A stretch of DNA of 64,000 nucleotides, taken from NCBI GenBank assembly GCA_965140415.1, contig OZ223209.1:293974-357973 (forward strand), in the 5' to 3' direction. Numbering within the stretch: the first letter of the stretch is position 1; each line of letters starts with the position of its first letter. The position numbers and the translations under genes are program-made. The notes below the pieces were generated by a model. The model searched no databases, was not told the origin of the DNA, and saw only the letters and a program-made list of their open reading frames with translations. Source of the stretch: Myxococcota bacterium. Lineage in GTDB: Bacteria > Myxococcota_A > SURF-8. Of the stretch, positions 4,365 to 56,816 are shown piece by piece.

Positions 4365-6023
4365 TCAGTGATGATTTGACCGTTTCAGGCTTTCCAGATA
4401 GGCTCTGATTTCTTCATCCGGTCGATCCGCTTCACCGGGCTCTTGCAGCAGATCTTCCAGCACCGAGACGGCCTGATTCGTTTCACCCTGCGCCGCCAGG
4501 GCCTGGGCAAGGTGGAAACGGAACATGCCATGAGGCTGAATCTCATAAGCCTTCCGGAACAGGATCTGGGCCGCCGCAGGATTTCCCTGCTTGAGTTGAA
4601 TCCGACCGCAGACACTATTCGCGTTCGCCAGAAATTCACGATCGGTTTTCGTCCATGCGCGTTCCGATCGCAATGCGCTATCGATTCTGGGTAACATTTT
4701 TACGCACTGCTTCTCGGCGGCCTCGATCAACCGGTGTTCCGACAACCACGTGGCCAATGTGACATCGACGCGCAAAGTGGCCCTATCGCTCATCGAGTCG
4801 GCAGCAAAGAGCGTGCCGTCGCCCTGCCAGTCCAGCGATCGCAGATGAACTTTTGCGCCCCAGATGAGTGAAAGCAGGATCACAGCGGCAAAAGCGAGCC
4901 TGGCGATCCGCCGATTAGCTTGTACCTGTTGCAAACCCCAAGCCAGCAACAGCATGACGCCGACCAGCGGGAGATGAAGAAAACGGGGAGCGAAAATGCA
5001 ATAGGCCAGTATGACCATGTTGGAAGCCAGGCTCAAGGTGGCCGGATACCAGAGCATCATCCACAGATGGCCCGGTTTCTTTTTCCAGACCTTCCATGTA
5101 GCAAGTGCGTATGCAAGCAACAACAGCAGCGCAGCGCCTCCCTGCCAGGCAGGGGGGATTCCGGTTACCGGATAGGTGAAGTCCGCTCGAGCACCGGCGA
5201 ACCCGCTGAGATGCATCAGATAATTCAATTGAAGTCCGAGAGCGGCCCACCAGGCTTCAAGTCTCGGAAGTTCATGCAGTTGATTGTCCACCAGAGGCAC
5301 CTGGCTGCCTTCGAAAGCACCGAAGAGCAGCCTCTGATAAAGCAGGTAGGCCAAGGCGACTGCAATCAGTGACAGCGTGCAGGCTGCTTGAGAGGCAATG
5401 CGCCCGCCCTTTCGTTGGTCGGGAAACCAGATGAGGGCAAGGGCCGGAACGATCAACGTGATTCCGTTTTCCTTGGCCAGGATGGCGCAGAGATACAATA
5501 GGGCAGCCGCCAGTGCCACACGCTTGCTTGCTTGCGGAAATTTCAACAAGACAATAACAAGCAGCAGAGCGAAAATCGTACATAGAATTTCCGCTCGTCC
5601 GACGACGGGATTCACGTTTTCCGCCAGTACGGGATGCAATAGAAAAAGCAGGCTACAGGCAAAGGCCGGGATTCGATCGAAAAAGCGCCGCGCCAGCAGG
5701 AAAAGCAAAAAGGCCGAAAGAGCGTGCAGCAGAATATTGTTCAGTCTGAAGACGAAGGGATTGAAATCGAAAATCTGCTTCTCGAGCATGAAACTGGCCG
5801 TGGTCAGCGGCCTGAAAGTCCGGGCATAGGTGAACCAGTTGCTACTCAGCAGGTCCGACCATTGAAGCTCCGCAACCGTTGGGTTGTTAAGCAGCGCTTC
5901 ATGGTCATCGAATACGAAATTCCCGGATAAGGATGGAAAATAAGCCGCCATGGCACAAACGAGCAGGACAAACAGAATGAAAATGTTTGTACGAGCAACT
6001 TGATCACCGGAATAACTGTCCAA
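4365..6023 (-). CDS. TPR-repeat integral membrane protein (TMTC/PMT-like putative glycosyltransferase)
   Basis: Multi-pass membrane N-terminal region with YFPSLSGNFVFDDHEALLNNP motif and C-terminal TPR repeats. The listed ORF start (6257) is a translated intergenic repeat; the likely start is the TTG at 6021-6023 with a GGAAGGGG SD (alternative ATG at 5951). Confidence 0.5.
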   Translation of the reverse strand: MDSYSGDQVARTNIFILFVLLVCAMAAYFPSLSGNFVFDDHEALLNNPTVAELQWSDLLSSNWFTYARTFRPLTTASFMLEKQIFDFNPFVFRLNNILLHALSAFLLFLLARRFFDRIPAFACSLLFLLHPVLAENVNPVVGRAEILCTIFALLLVIVLLKFPQASKRVALAAALLYLCAILAKENGITLIVPALALIWFPDQRKGGRIASQAACTLSLIAVALAYLLYQRLLFGAFEGSQVPLVDNQLHELPRLEAWWAALGLQLNYLMHLSGFAGARADFTYPVTGIPPAWQGGAALLLLLAYALATWKVWKKKPGHLWMMLWYPATLSLASNMVILAYCIFAPRFLHLPLVGVMLLLAWGLQQVQANRRIARLAFAAVILLSLIWGAKVHLRSLDWQGDGTLFAADSMSDRATLRVDVTLATWLSEHRLIEAAEKQCVKMLPRIDSALRSERAWTKTDREFLANANSVCGRIQLKQGNPAAAQILFRKAYEIQPHGMFRFHLAQALAAQGETNQAVSVLEDLLQEPGEADRPDEEIRAYLESLKRSNHH

Positions 6024-6179
6024 TACAAAGTCCCCTTCCCTCGGGTTGCTTGTTTCTCGCTGGCCGCTTTTCGATGAGTTATTATAACGTAGAAGCGCAG
6101 ATGGAATCCAAGTATTATTCACACGCTTCACCGGCTGGGCAGCATCACAAGAAGTTGCAAACCTGTATGATTTCTGGGT

Positions 6180-6259
6180 GGCGCGGGCTAAGCCGCAGAC
6201 TTGCCCGTGGTCATCAAGAGCCACATGGGCATGCTCCGTTTCACTTCGCTTGGCCAATG
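6180..6259 (-). repeat. REP-like ~80-bp hairpin repeat, copy A
   Basis: Reverse complement aligns with copies at 28510-28586, 34038-34111 and 54709-54786; shared core GCTTGCCCATGTGGCTCT...GGCAAG.CTGCGG.TTAGCCCGCGC. Confidence 0.6.
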
Positions 6260-6388
6260 ATTCCCGTTTTCAAAGCCAATCGCAATATCTTGTGATGCAC
6301 CCTAACCACTTGAAGAAATATGGAAACTCTTGACAATCGGGGGCTTGCGGGTAATCGTGTCCTTTCCGTCTTAGGGAAAGGATTCAAG

Positions 6389-7366
6389 ATGTTCCGTTGT
6401 CTGTTGTTCTACCGTTTCTTCCTGCTTTGTCTTTCCATAACACTACTGCTGTTGGGCTGCCACTCGGATGACTCTCCTTCATATGAAGGCGATGATTCCG
6501 AATGGGATGAATCTTCCGATGGTGACCTGGATCTGGAAGCGGAACCGGATATCGAACCGGAAGCAGAGAGCGCACCAACTCCCCGGCGCTGCAATGGGTT
6601 TACCGAATTGTGCGAGCGCCGCTATAACGAAGTCGCCTACGCCACCAGCCACAATGCAATGAGCAACGAACAAGATGGCTGGGTGGCTGCCAATCAATAC
6701 CTGCCGATTCCGCGTCAATTGCAAGATGGTGTTCGTGGCTTCATGCTGGATGTCTATCTTTATGAAAACGAATTGCACCTTTGCCACGGCGACTGCCTGT
6801 TCGGAAAGATTCTGCTGCGTGATGCGCTGCAACTGTTCAAGGATTTCATGGACGAGAACCCGAACGAGATCTGTACCTTGATACTGGAAAGCTATGCAGA
6901 CAGCGACGCTATCTTTGCCATGTTTGAGCAAGTTGGGTTGTCCTCCATGCTGTTTCGGAAATCGGAGGAAAATGACTGGCCGAGTTTAAATGAGATGATC
7001 GATGCGGAAACCCGCTTGGTCGTTTTTACAGACGATCAGACGTCAACGGTGCCGGACTTTCATTATGTCTGGGATTATTGCTGGGACACACCATGGCAGG
7101 TGATGGAGCAGGAAGATTTCACGTGTCGAATTCTACGCGGCGACCGGCAAAACGAGTTGTTCATCCTGAATCACATCCTTTACGGCGCTTTCGATTTACC
7201 CGATGCGACTAAAGCCGAACAAGCCAATAGCAATCCGTTTTTCCTCTCACGCGCACAGCAGTGCCAGCAAGAAAGCGGCCAGCTACCCAACTTCATCACG
7301 GTCGATTTTTATTCGCTCGGTAATCTGTTCGATGTCGTTGACGCATTGAATGGCGTGCAACACTAA
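6389..7366 (+). CDS. Secreted lipoprotein, PLC-like phosphodiesterase (PI-PLC X-domain-like)
   Basis: ATG at 6389 with GGAAAGGA SD; signal peptide and lipobox (LLLLGC), D/E-rich linker, then CNGFTELCERRYNEVAYATSHNAM...LHLCHGDC, which resembles PLC-like phosphodiesterases. Confidence 0.4.
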   Translation: MFRCLLFYRFFLLCLSITLLLLGCHSDDSPSYEGDDSEWDESSDGDLDLEAEPDIEPEAESAPTPRRCNGFTELCERRYNEVAYATSHNAMSNEQDGWVAANQYLPIPRQLQDGVRGFMLDVYLYENELHLCHGDCLFGKILLRDALQLFKDFMDENPNEICTLILESYADSDAIFAMFEQVGLSSMLFRKSEENDWPSLNEMIDAETRLVVFTDDQTSTVPDFHYVWDYCWDTPWQVMEQEDFTCRILRGDRQNELFILNHILYGAFDLPDATKAEQANSNPFFLSRAQQCQQESGQLPNFITVDFYSLGNLFDVVDALNGVQH

Positions 7367-17345: not shown

Positions 17346-17535
17346 CTGTTGGGTTGGGGGTTGTCCTCCACTCGACTCTGCAAAAAATTCACTTTAGAAT
17401 CCCATAGAAATGTGTCTGTAGTCATATCTCGGAACCGGGTTTGGGGTCAAGCGTTTTCGGGGGAATGGCGGGTTGACGCCTCGCCGCTACAGACAACATC
17501 AATGGTAATGATTGAGAACTTACGAGAAATTTCTC

Positions 17536-24936: not shown

Positions 24937-24949
24937 ACCAGGTATTATT

Positions 24950-25079
24950 CACTGGTTCTATGAATTTGTGCCATAGTCTTACACGATCCGAGATCGTGGA
25001 AGGCTGTGTGTTTTCTTATAGTTACACACGGCTTCCCGGAATCTCCATTCCGTTAGAACAGGCCACATCCCGATTACTC
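24950..25079 (+). repeat. 130-nt structured dispersed element, copy 1 (candidate ncRNA)
   Basis: About 87% identical to 41361-41490 in the same orientation; three predicted hairpins. Begins 13 nt after the DUF2892 stop. Confidence 0.6.
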
Positions 25080-26981: not shown

Positions 26982-27010
26982 TTGCCAGATAGCTCGATTG
27001 CTGGTATGAT
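26982..27010 (+). promoter_or_regulatory. Candidate sigma-70 promoter (TTGCCA-N17-TATGAT)
   Basis: -35 TTGCCA at 26982-26987, 17-nt spacer, -10 TATGAT at 27005-27010; 40 nt upstream of the regulator ATG at 27051. Confidence 0.3.
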
Positions 27011-27050
27011 ACGCATTCTGGGGTGTTTAATTGCAGCGGCTAAATCCACA

Positions 27051-28445
27051 ATGAGTCGAAAATATAAAATTCTGGTTGTTGATGACGAACCAACCGTCCG
27101 AACGGCTATCGCCAGTTATCTGCGTACCTTCAATTTCGAAGTTGAAGAAGCGGAAGATGGTGAATTTGCTAAAGATCTTTTAGGCAAAGCCCACTTCGAC
27201 CTGATCGTGACCGATGTCACCATGCCACGTTTCGACGGTCTCCAATTGACTGCGTATGCCAAGGAGCACAATCCACAGGCGGAAGTCATCGTCATTACCG
27301 GCTACGGCACAATTGAAATGGCGGTCGAGGTCATGAAGCGCGGAGCCTTCATGTTCCTGCAAAAGCCCATCAAGCTGCCGGATTTAAAAGATCAGGTGGA
27401 AAAAGCACTGGGTCTGATGCTCGACAGCAACTTCACGGCCAGTTCCATTCGCAATAACGTGGCCAAAGAGGGGGTCATCGGTCGACTGGTTAAAAGCGAC
27501 GATGCCAAAATGACCGAACTGTTCAGCATCGCCAAGGTGATTGCTCCCACCGATTCGACGGTATTGATTACCGGTGAAAGCGGTACCGGAAAAGAGCTGT
27601 TGGCGCAATACATTCATTTCAACAGCGGTCGTGCCGAAGGCCCCATGATTCCGATCAATTGCGGAGCCATTCCGGAAAGCCTGATGGAAAGCGAATTCTT
27701 CGGGCATGTCAAAGGAGCCTTCACTGGCGCAGTCAACGCCCGCAAAGGTCGCCTGAGGCTGGCCGATAACGGCACGCTCTTTCTGGATGAGGTCGGCGAA
27801 TTACCGCTGCACATGCAGGTCAAGCTGCTGCGCGTATTACAGGAAAAAAGCTTCGAACCGGTCGGCTCCAGCAAATCCGAAAATTCCGATTTTCGCGTGA
27901 TCGCGGCCACCAATAAAGACCTGGAAAAAGCGGTACAGGAAGAACAGTTCCGCGAGGATCTCTATTACCGTCTCAACGTCATCCCGCTGCATCTGCCGCC
28001 GCTACGGGCGCGACGCGGGGACATCATGAAGCTGGCCAACTATTTCGTCGATCGGTTCAACAGGGAAAAGAACTGTCGGATCAGCGGTTTCAGTGACGAT
28101 GCCGGAAACGTGCTAAGCGCTTATTCCTGGCCGGGAAACATTCGCGAACTGGAAAACATCGTAGAGCGCATGGTGATCATTCATCAGCGCGGTTTGATCG
28201 AAGTGGAAGACTTGCCCCAGAAAATCCGCAGTGGGTCATCCGTGAAAGCCCCCACCAAAATGGAAGACGAGGAAATCCCGGATAACGGCATCAACTTCGC
28301 CGATGAAGTGGATCGGCTGGAACGCAAGTTGATCGGGTTGGCCTTGCAACGCACGGGCGGCAACCGCAACCAGGCGGCAAAGATTCTGAACTTGAATCGT
28401 ACAACACTCGTCGAAAAAATCAAAAAGAAGAAAATAGAGATTTAG
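27051..28445 (+). CDS. Sigma-54-dependent response regulator (NtrC family)
   Basis: Receiver (KILVVDDEP...LIVTDVTMP), AAA+ sigma-54 activator core (VLITGESGTGKELLA, GAFTGA, ESEFFGH) and C-terminal HTH (QAAKILNLNRTTLVEKIKK). Start moved to ATG 27051. Confidence 0.85.
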   Translation: MSRKYKILVVDDEPTVRTAIASYLRTFNFEVEEAEDGEFAKDLLGKAHFDLIVTDVTMPRFDGLQLTAYAKEHNPQAEVIVITGYGTIEMAVEVMKRGAFMFLQKPIKLPDLKDQVEKALGLMLDSNFTASSIRNNVAKEGVIGRLVKSDDAKMTELFSIAKVIAPTDSTVLITGESGTGKELLAQYIHFNSGRAEGPMIPINCGAIPESLMESEFFGHVKGAFTGAVNARKGRLRLADNGTLFLDEVGELPLHMQVKLLRVLQEKSFEPVGSSKSENSDFRVIAATNKDLEKAVQEEQFREDLYYRLNVIPLHLPPLRARRGDIMKLANYFVDRFNREKNCRISGFSDDAGNVLSAYSWPGNIRELENIVERMVIIHQRGLIEVEDLPQKIRSGSSVKAPTKMEDEEIPDNGINFADEVDRLERKLIGLALQRTGGNRNQAAKILNLNRTTLVEKIKKKKIEI

Positions 28446-28509
28446 AGCAGATACTGTCCACTTCTGCTCATCGAGTAATCGAGATGTCTCATGGCCTCAC
28501 GGTGTGTGG

Positions 28510-28586
28510 CATGGGCCAAGCGGAGAAAAACGAAGCTTGCCCATGTGGCTCTCGAACACAGGCAAACCTGCGGTTTAGCCCGCGCC
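28510..28586 (+). repeat. REP-like ~80-bp hairpin repeat, copy B
   Basis: Aligns with copies A, C and D; the listed ORF 28491-28706 is just a translation of this repeat. Confidence 0.6.
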
Positions 28587-28642
28587 CCCCTGAAATCAAC
28601 TATAGGAGTTATTATCCATTATTCGCGATGTCTTACTGTAGC

Positions 28643-28667
28643 GGCGAGGCGTAAGCCCGCCGTTTTC
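28643..28667 (+). terminator. GTAA-tetraloop hairpin with T-tract (terminator-like), related copy at 33955-33977
   Basis: GGCG-a-GGC [GTAA] GCC-CGCC then GTTTTC; shares the string GTAGC.GCG.AGCGTAAGCCCGCC with the second copy. Confidence 0.4.
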
Positions 28668-28711
28668 AATATGCTTTTCAGCGCCACTACAGGAAAAACC
28701 TTGTAATCGCT

Positions 28712-33813: not shown

Positions 33814-33954
33814 AACAATTCGGTTTAATTGGAGGAGTTGCCATTCCCTTCGATGGATCGGGATTGCAATTCTAGAGTGGTAGCATCATTTTCCCGTAGG
33901 TCGGCTCCAGTGTAGCCGACAATTCTGAGCAAATGTCTAAAAATTCCCGTAGCA

Positions 33955-33977
33955 GCGGAGCGTAAGCCCGCCTTTTT
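33955..33977 (+). terminator. GTAA-tetraloop hairpin with T-tract (terminator-like), related to 28643-28667
   Basis: GCGG-a-GC [GTAA] GC-CCGC then CTTTTTAT; ~140 nt downstream of the WYL regulator stop. Confidence 0.4.
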
Positions 33978-34037
33978 ATACCGGTTCTTAGTCATTTCTA
34001 GCCACGAATTTCAATAACGTGTGCCATCTATAATAGA

Positions 34038-34111
34038 GGGTCTAAGCCGCAGGCTTACCCGTGAGAGCCACATGGGCAAGCTCCGATTCCTTTCCGTTTT
34101 CCAAGCCCATC
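34038..34111 (-). repeat. REP-like ~80-bp hairpin repeat, copy C
   Basis: Reverse complement aligns with copies B and D (CGGAGCTTGCCCATGTGGCTCTCACGGGTAAGCCTGCGGCTTAGACCC); stem kept through G-U pairing. Confidence 0.55.
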
Positions 34112-34239
34112 TTAACATTCAATGACACACCCAGTAGGGATATAAGGATATCCTGTCGCTCCTGCTTGACTTTCCCCCCATGGCTGCGGTAGGTTGTCTG
34201 CGATAGTTGAATTATATATTAGGAAGTAAGGGTAAAACG

Positions 34240-35610
34240 ATGAGGGTACAGCAATCACCGAGGCCTGCTCTCGTGGCCGTATTTTTTGCGGTCCTGATTT
34301 CTCTTGTTTTTCTAGTAGGTTGTGGCGCGAAAGCACGACCGGAGGCGCAGACTGCCGCCGAACCGCTGGCCATTAAGAATATCCAGGTCAGTGCGGAATC
34401 GGGTCGTCTGCGCATACAATGGAGCCTGCCGGCAGCGGAAATCAGCAAGGTGGCCGGTGTGCGCATTTACCGCAAACACTGGCCCACCGGCACCGCCGAT
34501 CCGGCGCAGATCAAAACCCTGCTGATGGGCGAACTGCCCGCCACGAAACAGAGTGTAGACGGTCGCCTGGTTTATGACGACCGCGACATCCAAACGACCA
34601 ACAGCTACGAATACCATCTGTTCGCCTACGACGCGGAAAAGAAACTGGGACCGGACTACATGATTGGCCCCTTTACTCCCGTTTTCCCGACGGAGCAGGT
34701 AAAGGGCCTGGTCGCCCAGGCGGGAGACGGCGTGGTGCAACTTAGCTGGATGGCAGTCACGGGCGCAGTCGATCCGGAAAGCGGTGAAATCGCCAACGAC
34801 ACCGGCCTGCGCGTCGATCTCTATCGCGCCGAGGGCGAGCAGGGACCGTACACGCCCCAGGCCATCAACGATAAGCCCCTTGTTTCAACTGGTTACGAAG
34901 ACTACGACGTGCGCCCCAGCAAGAAAATGCGTTACCAGGCCCGGCTGGTGCGTATCGAAAAGGGAGTGCGTCTGCTCGGTCCGTTGACCCCGGAAGTCTC
35001 CGTTACGGTGCAGGACAATACGCCCCCTGCGGCGGCACAGGTGCTTGAAAGCGAAGCCATCGAAGGCGGCGTGCGGCTGTTGTGGCAGCCGGTGCCGGAT
35101 CGTGGTTTGCTGGGTTATCAGGTTTTACGCCGCAGCGCCAAACAGGAGCCGAAGGCATTTGCCCCGGTTTCCGGCCTGTTGACGGTGGACGAATTCACCG
35201 ACCGCACAGTGGCCGATCCCGATACCTACGTGTATCAGGTGATTGCCATCGATCGCGCGGGGAATCGTTCGCAGTCCGCCGAACGATCCATCGTGTACCC
35301 CAAACCGGAATCTCCGGCGCCCGCTCCGGCTCCGACGGAGGGAACGACTCCCGCCGCCGAAGAAAAACCTGTAGCCGCTCCGGCTGCAACCGCCGCCCCC
35401 GCAACGGAAAAGAAACCCGAAGCGGCTCCGGCGACGACGGAAGCTCCCGCAGCAGTCGCCGAACCGAAAAAAGAAGCCGCACCTGCAACAGCCGAACCGG
35501 TAGCTCCCGCAGAGGAAAAGAAAACGGAAGCGGCTCCGGCTCAGTCGGAACAGACAGAGCCTGCCGTAGAAGAGCCGCCCATCGTGCCGGTGCTGGTGCC
35601 TTTGCAATAA
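34240..35610 (+). CDS. Secreted lipoprotein with beta-sandwich (FN3-like) repeats and Pro/Ala/Glu-rich C-terminal tail
   Basis: ATG at 34240; lipobox (FLVGCGA); C-terminal ~100 aa are low-complexity (PAPAPTEGTTPAAEEKPVAAPAATAAP...). Confidence 0.45.
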   Translation: MRVQQSPRPALVAVFFAVLISLVFLVGCGAKARPEAQTAAEPLAIKNIQVSAESGRLRIQWSLPAAEISKVAGVRIYRKHWPTGTADPAQIKTLLMGELPATKQSVDGRLVYDDRDIQTTNSYEYHLFAYDAEKKLGPDYMIGPFTPVFPTEQVKGLVAQAGDGVVQLSWMAVTGAVDPESGEIANDTGLRVDLYRAEGEQGPYTPQAINDKPLVSTGYEDYDVRPSKKMRYQARLVRIEKGVRLLGPLTPEVSVTVQDNTPPAAAQVLESEAIEGGVRLLWQPVPDRGLLGYQVLRRSAKQEPKAFAPVSGLLTVDEFTDRTVADPDTYVYQVIAIDRAGNRSQSAERSIVYPKPESPAPAPAPTEGTTPAAEEKPVAAPAATAAPATEKKPEAAPATTEAPAAVAEPKKEAAPATAEPVAPAEEKKTEAAPAQSEQTEPAVEEPPIVPVLVPLQ

Positions 35611-35657
35611 GCGCACTACGCCTGCCTAACTCGAACTTCAAGGATAGGAGGAGCGAC

Positions 35658-36533
35658 TTGGAACTCCATGGTGTTCTAACAGCATTAATCACACCGTTTA
35701 AAAACGGTGAAATCGATATTCCGGCTTTAAAAGCGCTGGTGAAACGACAATTGGACGCGGGTGTCCATGGTCTTGTGCCGCTTGGATCGACCGGCGAAGC
35801 CGCGACCATTTCGTTTGAGGAACGGGAAACCGTCATTCGCGTCGTGTTGGAAGAAGTCGCAGGGCGCGTACCCGTCGTGGTTGGTGCGGGAACCAATTCG
35901 ACCGCCAGCACCATCGACATGGTGAAACAGGCCAAGGAACTGGGCGCGGACTACGCCATGAGCGTGACGCCCTATTACAATAAGCCGACACCGGAAGGCA
36001 TGCTCGCGCACTATCGCGCCATTCTGGAGGCGGTGGATATTCCGTTGTTAGCATACAACGTTCCGGGCCGTACCGGGATCAACGTCGCACCCGCACTGGC
36101 GGCTCAGTTGGCCGAATTGCCTGGTTTGGTGGGTTTGAAGGAAGCCAGCGGCAACATCATGCAAGTCAGTGAGATCGCTTCGTTAACGGAAGGAAAACTG
36201 GCGCTGTTCTCCGGCGAGGATCAACTCTTTTACTCGATTCTGACACTGGGTGGCGCGGGCGTCATCTGTACCTGCTCCAATATCCAGCCGGAACGGTTCG
36301 TGGAGTTGTACAAGCGCTATACGGATGGCGATCTGGCGGGTGCGCGCAAGATTCAATGGGAATTGCTGCCATTAATCAAGCTGATGTTCACCTTTACCAA
36401 CCCGGTGGCGGTCAAGGCGGCTTCTACCCTGCTTGGGCTGGTGGGTAACGAACTGCGCCTGCCGTTGACGCCGTTGGACGGCGCACAGCTTGATTCTATT
36501 CGCACCGGATTGAACAAAATCGGTTTACTCTAA
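35658..36533 (+). CDS. dapA: 4-hydroxy-tetrahydrodipicolinate synthase
   Basis: TTG start at 35658 with AGGAGG SD; motifs GVLTALITPF, GLVPLGSTGE, YNKPT. The upstream part of the listed ORF is an out-of-context Arg/Ser-rich extension. Confidence 0.85.
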   Translation: MELHGVLTALITPFKNGEIDIPALKALVKRQLDAGVHGLVPLGSTGEAATISFEERETVIRVVLEEVAGRVPVVVGAGTNSTASTIDMVKQAKELGADYAMSVTPYYNKPTPEGMLAHYRAILEAVDIPLLAYNVPGRTGINVAPALAAQLAELPGLVGLKEASGNIMQVSEIASLTEGKLALFSGEDQLFYSILTLGGAGVICTCSNIQPERFVELYKRYTDGDLAGARKIQWELLPLIKLMFTFTNPVAVKAASTLLGLVGNELRLPLTPLDGAQLDSIRTGLNKIGLL

Positions 36534-41330: not shown

Positions 41331-41360
41331 TGTGTAGACTAGGTATCAGTCATATTTAGC

Positions 41361-41490
41361 CACTGATTCCATGAATTTGTGCCATAGTCTTACGCGATCG
41401 AAGATCGTGGAAGGCTGTGTGTCTTCAATAGGTTACACACGGCCTCCCGGAATTTTCATTCCGTGAGACCATGGCACATCCCGATTACTC
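41361..41490 (+). repeat. 130-nt structured dispersed element, copy 2 (candidate ncRNA or larC leader)
   Basis: About 87% identical to 24950-25079; differences sit in predicted loops or keep pairing. Lies between a terminator and the larC start 50 nt downstream. Confidence 0.6.
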
Positions 41491-41539
41491 GATGGACAGG
41501 AATGAGTAGTATCTATTCGAAATACAAGGGAGACGAATC

Positions 41540-48323: not shown

Positions 48324-50699
48324 ATGAACCAGACTGAAAACAAACGTGCGATCCTGCTGCCGTTCGTGGTATTCATCACCATTTCCCTGGTCTTTCTGGG
48401 GATCTGGGTGTCCTCTCGGCAACAGCAAAAGAATGTTCGGGAAAACCGCACTGCCCAGATTGCCGAACAGGTAGCGATCCGGCTGGAAACCTATTTCGAA
48501 ACTCGTTTCGATATTGTAGGCATGATGAAAGTCGAATGGGAGCAGGGCAGGCTTCATCAAAAAGATGAATTCCGCAAGCGCGCACTGTATATCCAGAAGC
48601 AATTCGAAGGGCTACTGGCCATCAACTGGATCGATCCCGAGGGGGTGATTCGCTGGGTGGTGCCGGAGGAAGAAAACCATTCCGCACTGAATCGTGATCT
48701 GAAACGCCATCCCGGTGGTGCCTCGAAAACATTCATGCTGGCTTATGAAAGCAGCCAATTTCAGGTTACGCCGCCCATCGATCTGTTGCAGGGCGGACGT
48801 GGTATTGCCGGGTATTTCCCTTTGTCTCTCCAAGGCAAACAGGACGGATACTTAAACGCTGTTTTCCGATTGAAACCTTTGGTGGAAAACTGCCTGTCGC
48901 GCGGTGTGTTGAAAAACTACGCCTTTGTTCTGCACGATGGTGCGCACAAGGTGTATCAGAACGGAACGGATGACGCTTTGGCCGGGAACATCATGCAATC
49001 CGCGCAAATGCTGACCGTCGGAAACCGGCAGTGGAGCCTGCAACTGATGCCCATGCCGGCGACTCTGGCTCGATACCAGACCAATATGCATCATTACTTT
49101 CTGGCCCTGGGTTTCGTGCTGGCTTTCGGGCTGGCCTATCTTACCCGGCGTCTGATTCTTCGCGAACAGGCCTTATCCGAAAGTGAGCATAAGTTCCGCG
49201 CGCTGGCCGACTCTACCAGCGCCGCGATTTTCATTTCCTATGACGATCACTATATCTATGCCAACCCAGCGGCCATTCGCCACACCGGGTACAGTTTCGA
49301 AGAGCTTTGCAAGATGAACCCGGAACAGATCCTGCACCCGGATAGCATGGCCTACATCATGCGCTTGCGTGAACGGGCAAGGCGGTTGAATGAAGCAATA
49401 CCTTCCCGGCTGGAGCTACGAGTGGTTACGGCGGATGAAAGTGAACGTACCGTAGAGGTGACTTACGGAAGCTTCGAGCTTGGCGGAGTTCCTGCCGTGA
49501 TTACCACCTCTTTCGACGTCACCGAGCGCAAACAGGCGGAACAGAAACTACGCGAGGAGGAGCATAAATACCGTACCATTTTCGAGACCAGCGGCAGCGC
49601 CATGGTGAGTCTGGATAAGGACGCCATCATTTTACTGGCCAATAAGGAATTCGAGAAACTGAGCGGATACACCCGGAAGGAAATCGAAGGCACGAACCTC
49701 TGGTCGAAGCTGCTCGATGCGGAAAGTCTGCAAAAACTGGAGAAACTCCGCAAACTGGACGATCTGGACGAGAAACTGACGACACATAGCCAGGAAATGG
49801 TTCTGATTAACCGCAACGGGAAAACCATCGATTGTCTCAGCCTGATCAACGTGGTTCCCGGTACCGATCAATGGGTCATGTCGTTTGTGGATATCAGCGA
49901 ACGTAAACAGGCCGAATTGCAGATGCTGCGCGCGGAGAAAATGGCGGCTTTGGGGCAGATTATCGCCGGTGTCGCGCACGAGATCAATAACCCCAACAAC
50001 TTTATCTATTTCAATCTTCCCATTCTCAAGCGCTATGTGGATGCCATCCGACCGATCCTCGATCGGGAGGCCGAGGAAGTAGAGCATCTGCGCATTTTGA
50101 ACATGTCCTACCATGCCTTTTTGGAGGATCTGTACAAGCTGATTGAAAACATGCAGGACGGCTCGGAGCGCATTACGGGAATCGTATCCGAATTGAAGAA
50201 TTATATCCGCAGTCACGAAGCGCAGGAGAAAAAGCCGGAGCCGATTGCGGCGATGGTCGATCGTGTCATGATCCTGGTGGGCAAGCAGGTTCGGAAAATG
50301 GTCAAGCATATGGAAATCGAACTCGATCCCGACCTGCCCAAGGTGCTGGTGCATTCGGGAAAAATCGAACAGGTGCTGATCAACCTGATCATCAATGCAG
50401 GCCAGGCGGCGAATAAAGCGGACAGTCGCGTGCGCGTGTCCGCCAATCGACACCCGCAAAACCGGAAAATCGTACAATTGCGTATACAGGACAACGGCTC
50501 GGGCATCGACAAAGAATTGCGCGAGAAGATCTTCGATCCCTTTTTTACCACCAAAAGCCGGGATTCAGGCACCGGACTGGGCCTGGCGATCAGTCAGCGT
50601 ATCATCGAAGAACATGACGGTCGCCTCTTTCTCGACGAAACGGAAGCGGAAACGACCTTTATTATTGAACTTCCCATGGCAGAAAGCGAATACGCATGA
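48324..50699 (+). CDS. Sensor histidine kinase with periplasmic sensor and PAS domains (NtrB-like partner)
   Basis: TM-periplasmic-TM N-terminus, PAS domains, HisKA ([16 protein letters not shown]) and HATPase ([23 protein letters not shown]). Start moved to ATG 48324. Confidence 0.8.
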
Positions 50700-52057
50700 G
50701 AGCGTCTGTGTTGATTGTAGATGACGAACAGGCTTTTTTAGATAGTCTGGCGCGGATGCTGCGCATGGAAGGATACGAAAATCTCTGTATCCGTTCCGAT
50801 TCGACCCAGGTTCCGCAACTCATTGAAAAGCAGCGTTTCGATGTGGCTTTTCTGGATGTAACCATGCCCGAGCTAGATGGCATGGACCTGTTGAAAATCA
50901 TTAAAGAAAAACAACCCCAGACGGAATGCATCATGTTGACGGCGCAGGACAGCATCCAGACCGTCATGCAGGCCACACGCTTGGGTGCTTATGATTATCT
51001 GATAAAACCGATTCTGCCGGAGCGGGTGATTCACAGCCTGGAAAAAGCACTGGAACATCGACGTTTACTGGAATCGCTGCGCATGCGTTCGGAAACCGCA
51101 CAAGCGCAGACACTGAATCAACCTGAAGCCTTTCAAGCCATCGTGACCGGCAATTCGCGAATGCTGAAACTGCTGCACGAAGCGGAACTGCATGCCGCCA
51201 GCAGAATTCCGGTTCTGATTACCGGTGAAACCGGAGTCGGCAAGGAACTGTTGGCGCAGGCGGTGCATCGTTGCAGCCGGATGCGGCAGGGAGCCTTCGT
51301 TCCCGTAAATATGCTGGCGCTTTCGCCTACGTTATTCGAGTCGGAATTTTTCGGCCATGTCAAAGGTGCATTCACCGGCGCGGAGCGCAACAAAACGGGC
51401 TATCTTGCCTCTGCCGATCAGGGCAGCCTGTTCCTGGATGAAATCGGCGATTTGAGCCTGGAAATACAAGGCAAGCTGCTGCGTATTTTACAAGAGGGAG
51501 AATTCACTCCGGTCGGCAGCAGCCAATCCCGACCGGCAAACGTCCGCTTCATCGCCGCGACCAATCAGAATCTGGAAGAACAGGTCCGCAAACAGCTTTT
51601 CCGCAAGGATCTGTTTTATCGACTTCAATTCGCCCATTTGCATCTGCCTCCTTTGCGGGAGCGCCGCGACGATATTCCTCTTTTGTGCGCACACGCGCTG
51701 GAGCGGTTCGGCAAGGAAGACATGTGCCTTTCAGATGCCGCGCTACAGCGCTTGCAGCAGCACGACTGGCCCGGCAATGTGCGCGAATTGATGGGAATTC
51801 TGGAGGCGGCGGTCAACCTGGCCGAGCAGGGAGAAATTCTTCCATCTCACTTGCGGTTACCAAAATCTTCCAGCCCAAAACCTTTGCCTGCCAATCCGTT
51901 GGCAATGGATGAGCTGCAACCGCTGGAAGACATCGAACGGGAGCATATTCTACGTGTTTACAATGCGTTGGATCACAATAAAAGCCAAACTGCGCGCGCC
52001 TTGGGCATCGGTCTGCAAACCCTGCATCGAAAACTGAAAAGTTACGAAGTTTCCTGA
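50696..52057 (+). CDS. Sigma-54-dependent response regulator (NtrC family)
   Basis: Receiver (VLIVDDEQ...VAFLDVTMP), AAA+ sigma-54 activator core (VLITGETGVGKELLA, GAFTGA) and C-terminal HTH; ATG overlaps the kinase stop. Confidence 0.85.
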   Translation: MRASVLIVDDEQAFLDSLARMLRMEGYENLCIRSDSTQVPQLIEKQRFDVAFLDVTMPELDGMDLLKIIKEKQPQTECIMLTAQDSIQTVMQATRLGAYDYLIKPILPERVIHSLEKALEHRRLLESLRMRSETAQAQTLNQPEAFQAIVTGNSRMLKLLHEAELHAASRIPVLITGETGVGKELLAQAVHRCSRMRQGAFVPVNMLALSPTLFESEFFGHVKGAFTGAERNKTGYLASADQGSLFLDEIGDLSLEIQGKLLRILQEGEFTPVGSSQSRPANVRFIAATNQNLEEQVRKQLFRKDLFYRLQFAHLHLPPLRERRDDIPLLCAHALERFGKEDMCLSDAALQRLQQHDWPGNVRELMGILEAAVNLAEQGEILPSHLRLPKSSSPKPLPANPLAMDELQPLEDIEREHILRVYNALDHNKSQTARALGIGLQTLHRKLKSYEVS

Positions 52058-54346: not shown

Positions 54347-54708
54347 GTTTCCGCCTCCGAAGATGAATTCCTATTATTCATATCAGATAACCAATGAGAC
54401 GAAAAGGTATCTTGTATTATTCCCACTGTCAACCAAATAATACGATTATTATTAAATAATAGTATGAAATAAATATGTGTTGTTATTACATCGGAATATC
54501 AGAATTTGACAACATGTCAGTATTCCTTGGTGTTTTCATATAGCTATCTGAATGTAGCCGGAATATAGGTATCTGATATTCGGGATACCCTTTTGTTGTC
54601 TCTATCGTATCGTAAAACCCACCGTATCGCTAGGTGAAGCACGGGTGCTGGTTAGGCCGATCCAACGAAGCGCATCACAAATAGTACGATTGCTTTTGAA
54701 AGCGGGTG

Positions 54709-54786
54709 CCAGGGGCAAAGCGAAGAGAAACGAAGCTTGCCCATGTGGCTTTCGAACACGGGCAAGCCTGCGGCTTGGCCCGCGCT
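54709..54786 (+). repeat. REP-like ~80-bp hairpin repeat, copy D
   Basis: Perfect 8-bp stem GCTTGCCC/GGGCAAGC around ATGTGGCTTTCGAACAC; aligns with copies A-C; lies in the AT-rich divergent region between the Rrf2 gene and the oxidoreductase gene. Confidence 0.6.
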
Positions 54787-54911
54787 ACCCAAAGTTAAGA
54801 AGCGGTTGAAAGATTTTGTACTGCACCCCAGACCGCAGGTTGTGCTTGCGTTGATGACACACTGTGTTAAAATCGGCATTGGATTGAATTGAAACAGGAT
54901 GCGAGGCGGGT

Positions 54912-56816
54912 ATGACAAAGCTCCAGTTTACCGAGCAACAGCGGGATATTCTTTACCATTTGGGACAATGCATCATCATTCCCGGTAGGGTCTTTCCACC
55001 CTTCTCCCGCGATGTCGTCACACGCATCGAGTCTTATTTACAACAGACCCCGCCACATGTGCTGCGTATGTATGCCAACTTCCTGATGCTGCTCGAACGA
55101 GGCGCATGGACGCGCTATTTCAAACCGATGAGCCGCCTGAATTCCAAACAGCGACACGACTATGTCACTTCCTGGCAGCAGGGATCGGTTGCCAAGCGTA
55201 CGATAATGAAAGCACTTGTAGCGCCCATCAAAGTCAACTACTACGACGATCCCGGCCTGTTCGAACAACTGGGCTTGCAATACGGAAAGCCGCCGGTGAA
55301 GGTGGAAACCGATCGCTGGCAGGAACGGATTACGGCTGGCAAGGATATCCACGAAGATCTGCAACTTGAATGCGAAGTCGTGGTTGTAGGCAGTGGTGCC
55401 GGGGGTGCGGTTGTTGCCGCCGAACTGGCGGAAAAAGGCGACGCCGTGATTCTCGTCGAGCGCGGCGATTACTTCGACCGCTCGCATTTCAGTGGCCGCC
55501 CCTTCGCCATGATGCGCGACTTGTACGTGCAGCAGGGACTATTGGGAACGGTGGGAAACGCCTACATTCTGGCTCCGGCGGGCAGAACCGTAGGCGGCAC
55601 CACAACCGTCAACTCGGGTACCTGCCTGCGTCCTCCGCGTCGCACCTTGCGCCGCTGGCGCGAAGAATACGGCTTGACGGAATACGCTCCCGATAAACTG
55701 GAAGCATATTTTCGCTCGGTGGAATCGATTTACCAGGTCGCGCCCGCCAAAGCCGAGCAGATCGGCAAAAACGGCGAGATCATCGCTCGCGGCGCGCAAC
55801 GGCTCGGTTATCGCCACGGACCGCTTCCGCGCAACGCCCCCGACTGCGACGGCCAGGGCGTTTGCCCATTCGGTTGTCCGACCGACGCCAAACGCTCCAC
55901 CAACGTCAGTTACGTGCCGCGCGCCTTAAAGCAGGGCGCATCGCTGCTAACGGGCGTGGAAGTCAATGAAATTATAATCAAAAACGGCCAACCCACCGGC
56001 ATTCGCGGCTTCTGTTGTTCCTCCGGAAGGCAGGTGACGATTAACGCCAAGATCGTCGTACTGGCGCTGGGTGCCTATTTCACTCCGCTGTTATTGATGA
56101 AACAGAAGCTGGGGAATAGTTCGGGGCAACTCGGGCGCAACCTGTCGATTCATCCCAGCACCGGTGTCGGGGCGCTGATGGCCGAACGCCTCAACGCCAG
56201 CAACTGTATCCCCCAGGGATACATGGTGGATGAATTCGAAGAAGAAGGCATCATGTTCGAAGGCAGCCACATGCCCATGGATCTGGCCAGCCTGATCTAC
56301 CCCGGCTTCGGTTCTCCGTTGCAACAGACTATGGAGGCCTACGAGCGGCTCTCCCTGTTCGGCCTGATGATCGAAGACAGCACCCGTGGCGTGATCCGTC
56401 CCCGAAAAGACGGATTGCCCTTGATCCGCTACATGATGAATCGAAACGACGTCGCGCTGATGCAGCGCGGAATCGGCATCCTGTGCCGCATCTATCTGGA
56501 AGCCGGAGCCTTGCAGGTCGTTGCACCGGTGCACGGCTGGAAAACGATTCGCTCCGCCTCCGATCTGGAAGCCAATTTAAGCCGAAAGCTGCATGCCTGG
56601 GATCTGGATATGAGCGCCTATCATCCCCTGGGTAGCTGCCACATGGGAGGGGATCGCACCAACTATGTTTGCAGTCCCGATGGCGAACTGTACGACATGC
56701 CCAATGTTTTCGTTTGCGATGGCTCGGCCATCCCACCCGCCTTGGGAGTCAACCCGATGATCACCATTTCGGCAGTCGCCGCCCGAAACGCCGAGGTCAT
56801 TCATTCTCGGTTGTAG
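54912..56816 (+). CDS. GMC-family FAD-dependent oxidoreductase
   Basis: FAD-binding VVVVGSGAGGAVVAAELAEKGDAVILVERG and a C-terminal GMC-type region; ~634 aa. Confidence 0.75.
   Translation: MTKLQFTEQQRDILYHLGQCIIIPGRVFPPFSRDVVTRIESYLQQTPPHVLRMYANFLMLLERGAWTRYFKPMSRLNSKQRHDYVTSWQQGSVAKRTIMKALVAPIKVNYYDDPGLFEQLGLQYGKPPVKVETDRWQERITAGKDIHEDLQLECEVVVVGSGAGGAVVAAELAEKGDAVILVERGDYFDRSHFSGRPFAMMRDLYVQQGLLGTVGNAYILAPAGRTVGGTTTVNSGTCLRPPRRTLRRWREEYGLTEYAPDKLEAYFRSVESIYQVAPAKAEQIGKNGEIIARGAQRLGYRHGPLPRNAPDCDGQGVCPFGCPTDAKRSTNVSYVPRALKQGASLLTGVEVNEIIIKNGQPTGIRGFCCSSGRQVTINAKIVVLALGAYFTPLLLMKQKLGNSSGQLGRNLSIHPSTGVGALMAERLNASNCIPQGYMVDEFEEEGIMFEGSHMPMDLASLIYPGFGSPLQQTMEAYERLSLFGLMIEDSTRGVIRPRKDGLPLIRYMMNRNDVALMQRGIGILCRIYLEAGALQVVAPVHGWKTIRSASDLEANLSRKLHAWDLDMSAYHPLGSCHMGGDRTNYVCSPDGELYDMPNVFVCDGSAIPPALGVNPMITISAVAARNAEVIHSRL

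Follow-up and report, generated by a model that had tools for sequence, protein, structure and literature searches.

A probable lineage-specific family of imperfectly palindromic MITE/ERIC-like intergenic repeats in a Myxococcota bacterium

What kind of element is the hairpin-forming sequence that lies between two genes at positions 28,510 to 28,586 of a 64,000-nucleotide stretch of a Myxococcota genome (hereafter the window), and why does it recur elsewhere in the same stretch? The original prediction, made from the sequence, described a REP-like hairpin of about 80 bp in four intergenic copies, which would mislead gene callers. Both the motif scan and a covariance model found the four copies where they had been placed, in both orientations. 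With up to three mismatches allowed, the core motif GCTTGCCCATGTGGCTCT had four matches in the 64-kb window, compared with 0.06 expected by chance, and a second core motif, GGCAAGCCTGCGGCTTAGCCC, likewise had four matches with 0.00 expected (Table 1). A covariance model made from the four repeat cores (R1) retrieved, when the full window was searched without filters, exactly four copies with scores of 80-110 bits, the next best match reaching 11.6 bits. Neither this model nor blastn with short words detected further degenerate copies or solitary arms in the window. The repeat is real and not a product of chance. When the real starts of the neighboring genes are used, all four copies are intergenic, and the description of an interspersed, hairpin-forming, intergenic repeat present in both orientations was borne out.

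Table 1. Positions of the repeat copies and of associated features in the window.
Feature	Position	Strand	Length	Core (covariance model)	GCTTGCCCATGTGGCTCT match	Score (bits)	Remarks
Copy 1	6133-6307	-	175 nt	6168-6268	6217-6234	105.9	Most intact; terminal inverted arms at 6282-6307 and 6133-6158
Copy 2 (flagged)	~28506-28625	+	~120 nt	28501-28598	28535-28552	106.5	5′ arm lost; inner hairpin at ~28535-28567
Copy 3	33981-34137	-	157 nt	34022-34115	34064-34081	80.3	Most diverged
Copy 4	54649-54836	+	188 nt	54701-54798	54735-54752	110.4	15-nt insertion in 5′ arm; inner hairpin pairs 54735-54746 with 54756-54767
Second palindromic family	24945-25079	+
Second palindromic family	41356-41523	+					Upstream of larC (start 41540)
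Second palindromic family	28440-28507	-					Partial, inverted; abuts copy 2
GTAG-tagged hairpin GTAGCGGCGAGGCGTAAGCCCGCC	28638-28661	+					Followed by T run (to 28666)
GTAG-tagged hairpin GTAGCGGCGAGGCGTAAGCCCGCC	33949-33972	+					Followed by T run
GTAG-tagged hairpin GTAGCGGCGAGGCGTAAGCCCGCC	17467-17490	-					No T run
Sigma-54-type -24/-12 look-alike TGGCATGGGCCAAGC	28507-28521	+					GG-N10-GC; TGGCAT-N5-AAGC
Terminator-like hairpin GGTATCTGATATTCGGGATACC	54568-54589	+					Followed by T run
Mechanical ORF	4365-6257	-					PMT_2/TPR protein; reads through copy 1
Mechanical ORF	5987-6295	+					Crosses a copy
Mechanical ORF	28491-28706	+					Reads through copy 2
Mechanical ORF	54652-54918	-					Reads through copy 4
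Lipoprotein ORF beside copy 1	6320-7366	+					Over-extended; real start ATG 6389
Lipoprotein ORF beside copy 3	34207-35610	+					Over-extended; real start ATG 34240
dapA ORF	35082-36533	+					Over-extended
Sigma-54 response-regulator ORF	26982-28445	+					Assigned by Pfam; NtrC type
Sigma-54 response-regulator ORF	50696-52057	+					Inferred from DNA similarity

The repeated unit turned out to be longer than predicted. Instead of ~80 bp, the homologous unit measures 157-188 nt, with arms that are homologous among copies 1, 3, and 4, and the whole forms an imperfect palindrome with a conserved core of ~98 nt. A full unit of ~175 nt comprises terminal inverted arms of ~26 nt around a GC-rich central hairpin, which is kept in all four copies and reads GCTTGCCC-A-TGTGG ... 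CCACA-C-GGGCAAGC, the apical loop varying in length. The putative end sequence of the element is GGTTAGGGTGCATCACAAG, and an invariant 13-mer, TGCCCATGTGGCT, lies within the central inverted repeat. In copy 1, a repeat finder reported 26-nt terminal inverted arms that are 77% complementary. Copy 4 carries a near-perfect inner hairpin (12 nt, 92% complementary). In copy 2, a fragment of a second family of palindromic repeats, in inverted orientation, stands where the 5′ arm would be, and the 3′ arm is degenerate, while copy 3 has internal deletions that remove 13-17 alignment columns on the 5′ side of the core and shorten the apical loop (7 nt). Over the core, copies 1, 2, and 4 are 84-87% identical to one another and 67-73% identical to copy 3; arm identity between copies (28-65%) lies below the core identity of 67-87%. 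For copies 1 and 4, the core is 87% identical and the arms are 65% and 58% identical, and the core is significantly better conserved. The possibility that the copies are fragments of a longer known mobile element had been named as one that would overturn the original prediction: they do belong to a longer element, but not to a known one.

The size and anatomy of the unit do not support the label “REP-like.” REPs are palindromes of 20-40 bp that end in GTAG or CGTC and are linked to RAYT genes (PMC3733652). The element studied here is 4-8 times longer than a REP; copy 1 contains neither GTAG nor CTAC, no conserved tag is present at either end of the alignment, and no Y1/RAYT or other transposase gene was recognized among the ~39 larger ORFs of the window that were scanned. 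It also differs from a REPIN, which consists of two inverted REP units and a short spacer, in that its two halves are inverted homologues of which neither is a GTAG-tagged REP hairpin. REP families often exceed 100 copies per genome; the density of the present element is four copies in 64 kb. What it shares with REPs and BIMEs is that it is an extragenic palindromic repeat, and that copies 2 and 3 lie in mosaics with short GTAG-tagged hairpins.

[quoted passage not shown] The small size, the lack of a transposase gene, the dispersed copies, and, in copy 1, the long stem-loop fold are all found here. As comparison families we took Correia/NEMIS of Neisseria, Chunjie of Geobacter uraniireducens (178-235 bp), Nezha, and RUP, the likeness to which is one of description and not of compared sequences: size below 200 bp, no transposase, several copies dispersed between genes, and an extended RNA stem-loop (PMC3184786). 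Further features shared with bacterial MITEs are terminal inverted repeats (in the intact copy), truncated or internally deleted variants, and the extension or creation of ORFs (PMC3184786). Unlike in a typical MITE, however, the terminal inverted repeats are less conserved than the core, and they are clear in copy 1 only, being weak in copy 4, while copy 2 has no 5′ end. Within 8 nt on either side of the inferred, and uncertain, ends there was no consistent target-site duplication (GGT, GTGCT, and TATA occur at differing offsets), and no parent insertion sequence was found in the window.

The element also resembles ERIC sequences, which are likewise imperfect palindromes of more than 100 bp that are extragenic, inserted in either orientation, non-coding, and able to form an RNA hairpin when co-transcribed with a gene. 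ERIC differs in its length (~127 bp, compared with 157-188 nt here) and in its host lineage (the nearest relatives of our source organism are metagenome-assembled genomes [MAGs] labelled Myxococcales), and no TA-flanked target duplications of the ERIC type were seen. Because blastn of 5,426 E. coli genomes (28 Gb; word size 11, E <= 0.01), which carry ERIC, returned no match, this likeness is one of architecture only. Other classes were considered and rejected. Rfam 15 gave no match at gathering threshold over the window, and permissive thresholds added only chance-level snoRNA matches (E > 1); no tRNA or tmRNA was found; and GTTAGGC in copy 4 fits the GTTRRRY consensus of integron attC sites, but no such fit is seen at the opposite end, and the neighbors are housekeeping genes rather than cassettes. 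Given that the size, non-coding nature, multiplicity, and fold are those of MITEs, and that the size and tag of REPs are lacking, we filed the element as a lineage-specific MITE/ERIC-like repeat.

We next consider how widely the family is distributed. With a 23-base gapped pattern to which all four copies conform, scans of 185,579 GTDB species genomes and of JGI metagenomes, collections that do not include the source genome, returned chance matches inside coding sequences only, and IMG/VR gave none; blastn found no match in plasmids and phages. In eight loci (145 kb) from the nearest relatives, chosen around the dap operons and the orthologues of the GMC oxidoreductase gene, the covariance model produced chance-level matches only, which on inspection did not resemble the element. 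These relatives share 69-75% identity in DapL and 55-56% in the GMC enzyme with the source organism and are not syntenic with it at the insertion sites. The source organism is phylogenetically isolated, with best non-self identities of 75% (DapL) and 56% (GMC oxidoreductase) to MAGs, some of which are labelled Myxococcales or Thermodesulfobacteriota. As far as tested, the family thus appears to be restricted to the source lineage, and its absence from the nearest relatives and from all scanned collections fits a young, lineage-restricted selfish repeat. This is an ordinary kind of element whose sequence family is new and has so far been seen in this genome only.

Taken together, we favor, with a probability of roughly 0.6, the view that these are interspersed repeats of the MITE/ERIC/Correia type, which are non-coding and imperfectly palindromic and form a family specific to this lineage. 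The copies would have spread to intergenic sites in the past through a trans-acting transposase encoded outside the window, and would now be decaying by truncation, internal deletion, and substitution. The signs of such decay are the missing 5′ arm of copy 2, which abuts another repeat, the deletions in copy 3, and the finding that copy 1 alone folds better than shuffled sequence. A copy located in a transcribed region may fold, on either strand, as a long RNA hairpin and could thereby affect how mRNA is processed or how stable it is. Gene callers are misled by the reading frames and start codons that the copies supply. Since two more hairpin repeat families occur in the window, the genome accumulates such elements. 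One feature is the reverse of what is typical for MITEs: the core is better conserved than the arms, which hints at some constraint on the core.

Folding was examined copy by copy, and the conservation of pairs was examined on the alignment. As RNA, copy 1 is predicted to fold into a single rod (-76.4 kcal/mol; z = -4.07, and z = -1.8 when folded as DNA), while the folds of copies 4, 3, and 2 do not surpass those of shuffled sequence (z = -0.96, -0.91, and -0.29, respectively). When the structure of copy 1 was imposed on the four-copy alignment, 77% of cells were paired, compared with 34-43% when the partner columns were slid, a comparison that is biased toward copy 1, from which the structure came. 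Pairs changed on both sides numbered 10, compared with 2-5 in the slid controls, and such counts are weak with only four sequences. Over the inner helix, pairs were kept at 17 of 19 positions in copy 4, 15 of 16 in copy 3, and 15 of 19 in copy 2, where controls with partner columns moved by 1-3 were roughly 20-50% paired; the middle helices were kept in copies 4 and 2 (11 of 13 pairs each). The outer arms pair convincingly in copy 1 only: copy 4 retains 13 of 26 pairs, compared with 6-10 of 26 in slid controls, and pairing in copy 3 did not rise above its slid controls. By eye, the outer arms of copy 3 seemed to contain compensatory changes, but a register-controlled count did not bear these out. 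The 8-bp stem described in the original prediction as kept by G-U pairs is perfect in copy 4 and contains one G-U pair in copy 3, but it is interrupted by an A-A mismatch in copy 1 and by two C-A mismatches in copy 2. The two strands are about equal in folding: copies 1 and 3 do better as the sense strand and copies 2 and 4 as the antisense strand, so that no consistent strand asymmetry in folding energy, and no sign of one functional RNA strand, is seen across the four copies.

We then looked at the genomic setting of the copies. Copy 1 lies between divergent genes for a PI-PLC-like lipoprotein and a PMT_2/TPR membrane protein, and copy 2 lies between convergent genes for a sigma-54 regulator of the NtrC type and an MA-type peptidase. 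Copy 3 is located between the end of a gene for a WYL-domain regulator (33813) and a lipoprotein gene that heads a lipoprotein-dapA-dapB-dapL operon. Copy 4 is placed 76 nt upstream of the start of a GMC oxidoreductase gene (54912), in a region that is divergent with an Rrf2 regulator gene. The flanking genes of the four copies are unrelated and have no common theme, and with two copies in divergent regions, one in a convergent, and one in a tandem region, the element has no fixed relation to transcription units. A leader shared by paralogues was rejected as an explanation, as the genes 3′ of copies 1 and 4 (630 and 634 aa) encode a PMT_2/TPR protein and a GMC oxidoreductase, respectively, without similarity to each other (BLASTP E > 5). 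Several further features were noted. Two sigma-54-dependent response-regulator ORFs, the second of them a putative one (Table 1), share 71-87% DNA identity in blocks, and a sensor kinase gene adjoins each. A terminator-like hairpin followed by a T run closely precedes copy 4, within the AT-rich stretch between the divergent Rrf2 regulator and GMC oxidoreductase genes, and might terminate a short transcript that is not annotated. The relatives encode a DapA of 291-293 aa within the same unknown-dapA-dapB-dapL-HPPK-transaldolase cluster.

Of the alternatives to a MITE/ERIC-type repeat, the one that survives best, though we regard it as unlikely, is that the conserved core of ~90-100 nt is a functional structured RNA, either a multi-copy sRNA or a cis-acting hairpin bound by a host protein or RNase, and that the arms are incidental. 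The much better conservation of the core than of the arms, the retention of the inner helix in all four copies, with G-U substitutions, and the excess of pairs changed on both sides over slid controls are consistent with this idea, as are the orientation of copies 1 and 4 toward the downstream gene and the hairpin with T run that follows copy 2. At the boundary of copy 2 there is also a sigma-54-like sequence, directly downstream of the gene for the NtrC-type activator. This sequence may owe its existence to chance, however: it straddles the junction of two repeat fragments, and as a promoter module of the element it was rejected, since TGGCAT-N5-AAGC is present in copy 2 only and the GG of the -24 element corresponds to AT in copy 1 and to GC in copy 4. 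Against a functional RNA stand the lack of an Rfam match at either threshold, the truncations and deletions, the better fold of the antisense strand in two of the four copies, and the lack of any relationship among the downstream genes. Neither was a homologue found in the 145 kb from relatives, which include the regions upstream of their GMC and dap orthologues. It is the inconsistent orientation to genes, the truncations and deletions, the shuffle-level folding of three of the four copies, and the absence from relatives that led us to rate a functional RNA as low as we did.

A broader version of the same idea is that selection holds the core of ~90-100 nt, which would then not be a decaying selfish repeat, in one of several undescribed capacities: a multi-copy structured RNA, for instance an sRNA family or a module acting in processing or stability, or a single-stranded DNA hairpin, put to use by the host or a novel enzyme of the HUH type, with copy 2 perhaps having gained a sigma-54-type promoter next to the NtrC-like regulator gene. 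We consider this decidedly unlikely.

Two additional repeat families were encountered in the window (Table 1). The first is a second long palindromic intergenic family, two copies of which are 85% identical over 135 nt, while the third is the fragment next to copy 2. Its copy upstream of larC forms a hairpin of ~100 nt (z = -5.18), and the family has no Rfam match. The other is the short GC-rich hairpin with a GTAG tag and a GTAA loop, which occurs three times in the window, compared with 0 expected; two of the three lie 9-13 nt from the 3′ ends of copies 2 and 3. By the definition of REPs, it is this short hairpin that is the real REP-like candidate in the window.

The proximity of these hairpins bears on another alternative, namely that the long element is a REP/REPIN-type or RAYT-associated repeat with long terminal inverted repeats, and that a domesticated Y1 transposase (IS200/IS605-like), with its gene elsewhere in the genome, moved it in the form of a single-stranded DNA hairpin. 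An extragenic, hairpin-forming palindrome in both orientations, which twice forms BIME-like mosaics with GTAG-tagged hairpins, would suit such a history, and RAYT genes flanked by long terminal inverted repeats, as well as moderately abundant families of such repeats, have been reported (PMC3733652). We nevertheless give this origin little chance: 157-188 nt is far above the 20-40 bp of a REP, copy 1 has neither a GTAG nor a CGTC tag, the element is no inverted pair of REP units, and the window ORFs that were scanned include no Y1 transposase gene. Smaller still is the chance that the copies are immobile palindromic binding sites for a host protein (a nucleoid-associated protein or global regulator) retained at promoters and terminators, for although the 13-mer in the central inverted repeat is invariant and two copies lie in divergent promoter regions, homology over 160-190 nt far exceeds the needs of a binding site, one copy lies between convergent gene ends, the neighboring genes have no theme in common, and an invariant run of 13 in ~80 columns is, by a rough estimate, near chance for four sequences of ~85% identity.

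Having placed the element with MITE/ERIC-type repeats, we turn to its effect on gene calls. As predicted, the three listed ORFs that had been named read through copies, and one additional mechanical ORF also crosses a copy (Table 1). The predicted consequence, over-extended or invented genes, was supported in its first part. A search of 5.8 billion proteins with the repeat translated in all six frames gave a single match, P0241 (619 aa), the public version of the window's PMT_2/TPR protein, whose start codon, GTG 6224, lies inside the repeat core. In an exhaustive HMMER search, homologues of P0241 align only from residue 78-92 on, so that its annotated N-terminus is unsupported; residues 3-530 of the closest homologue (65% identity, 552 aa), for example, align to query residues 86-613. 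About 70-85 N-terminal residues of P0241 are thus unsupported, and 31 of these derive from the repeat. The alignments suggest that translation more likely starts near TTG 6023 than at GTG 6224. By contrast, the ORFs that read through copies 2 and 4 are not among the public proteins, and invented genes are therefore shown for the mechanical ORF list only.

A small peptide gene was considered as well and rejected: in copies 1, 2, and 4 one reading frame runs uninterrupted through the core, but a 7-nt deletion shifts it in copy 3, the copies share neither a start nor a stop, and the numbers of synonymous and non-synonymous differences are similar. Mechanical over-extension was also seen in neighboring genes. 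The ORFs of both lipoprotein genes begin too early, as their lipobox signal peptides start at ATG 6389 (MFRCLLF...LLLLGC) and ATG 34240 (MRVQQS...FLVGC), and a purine-rich ribosome-binding site lies ahead of each of these codons. The dapA ORF is too long by ~190 codons, with the DapA domain starting at residue 197, and overlaps the upstream gene.

Together with the two other hairpin repeat families of the window, the repeat generates spurious ORFs, and gene calling in this poorly sampled lineage would benefit if such families were masked. If the core proves to be under selection, it would represent a new structured element in a little-studied group. The repeat family could also be used to type strains and to follow recent genome dynamics.
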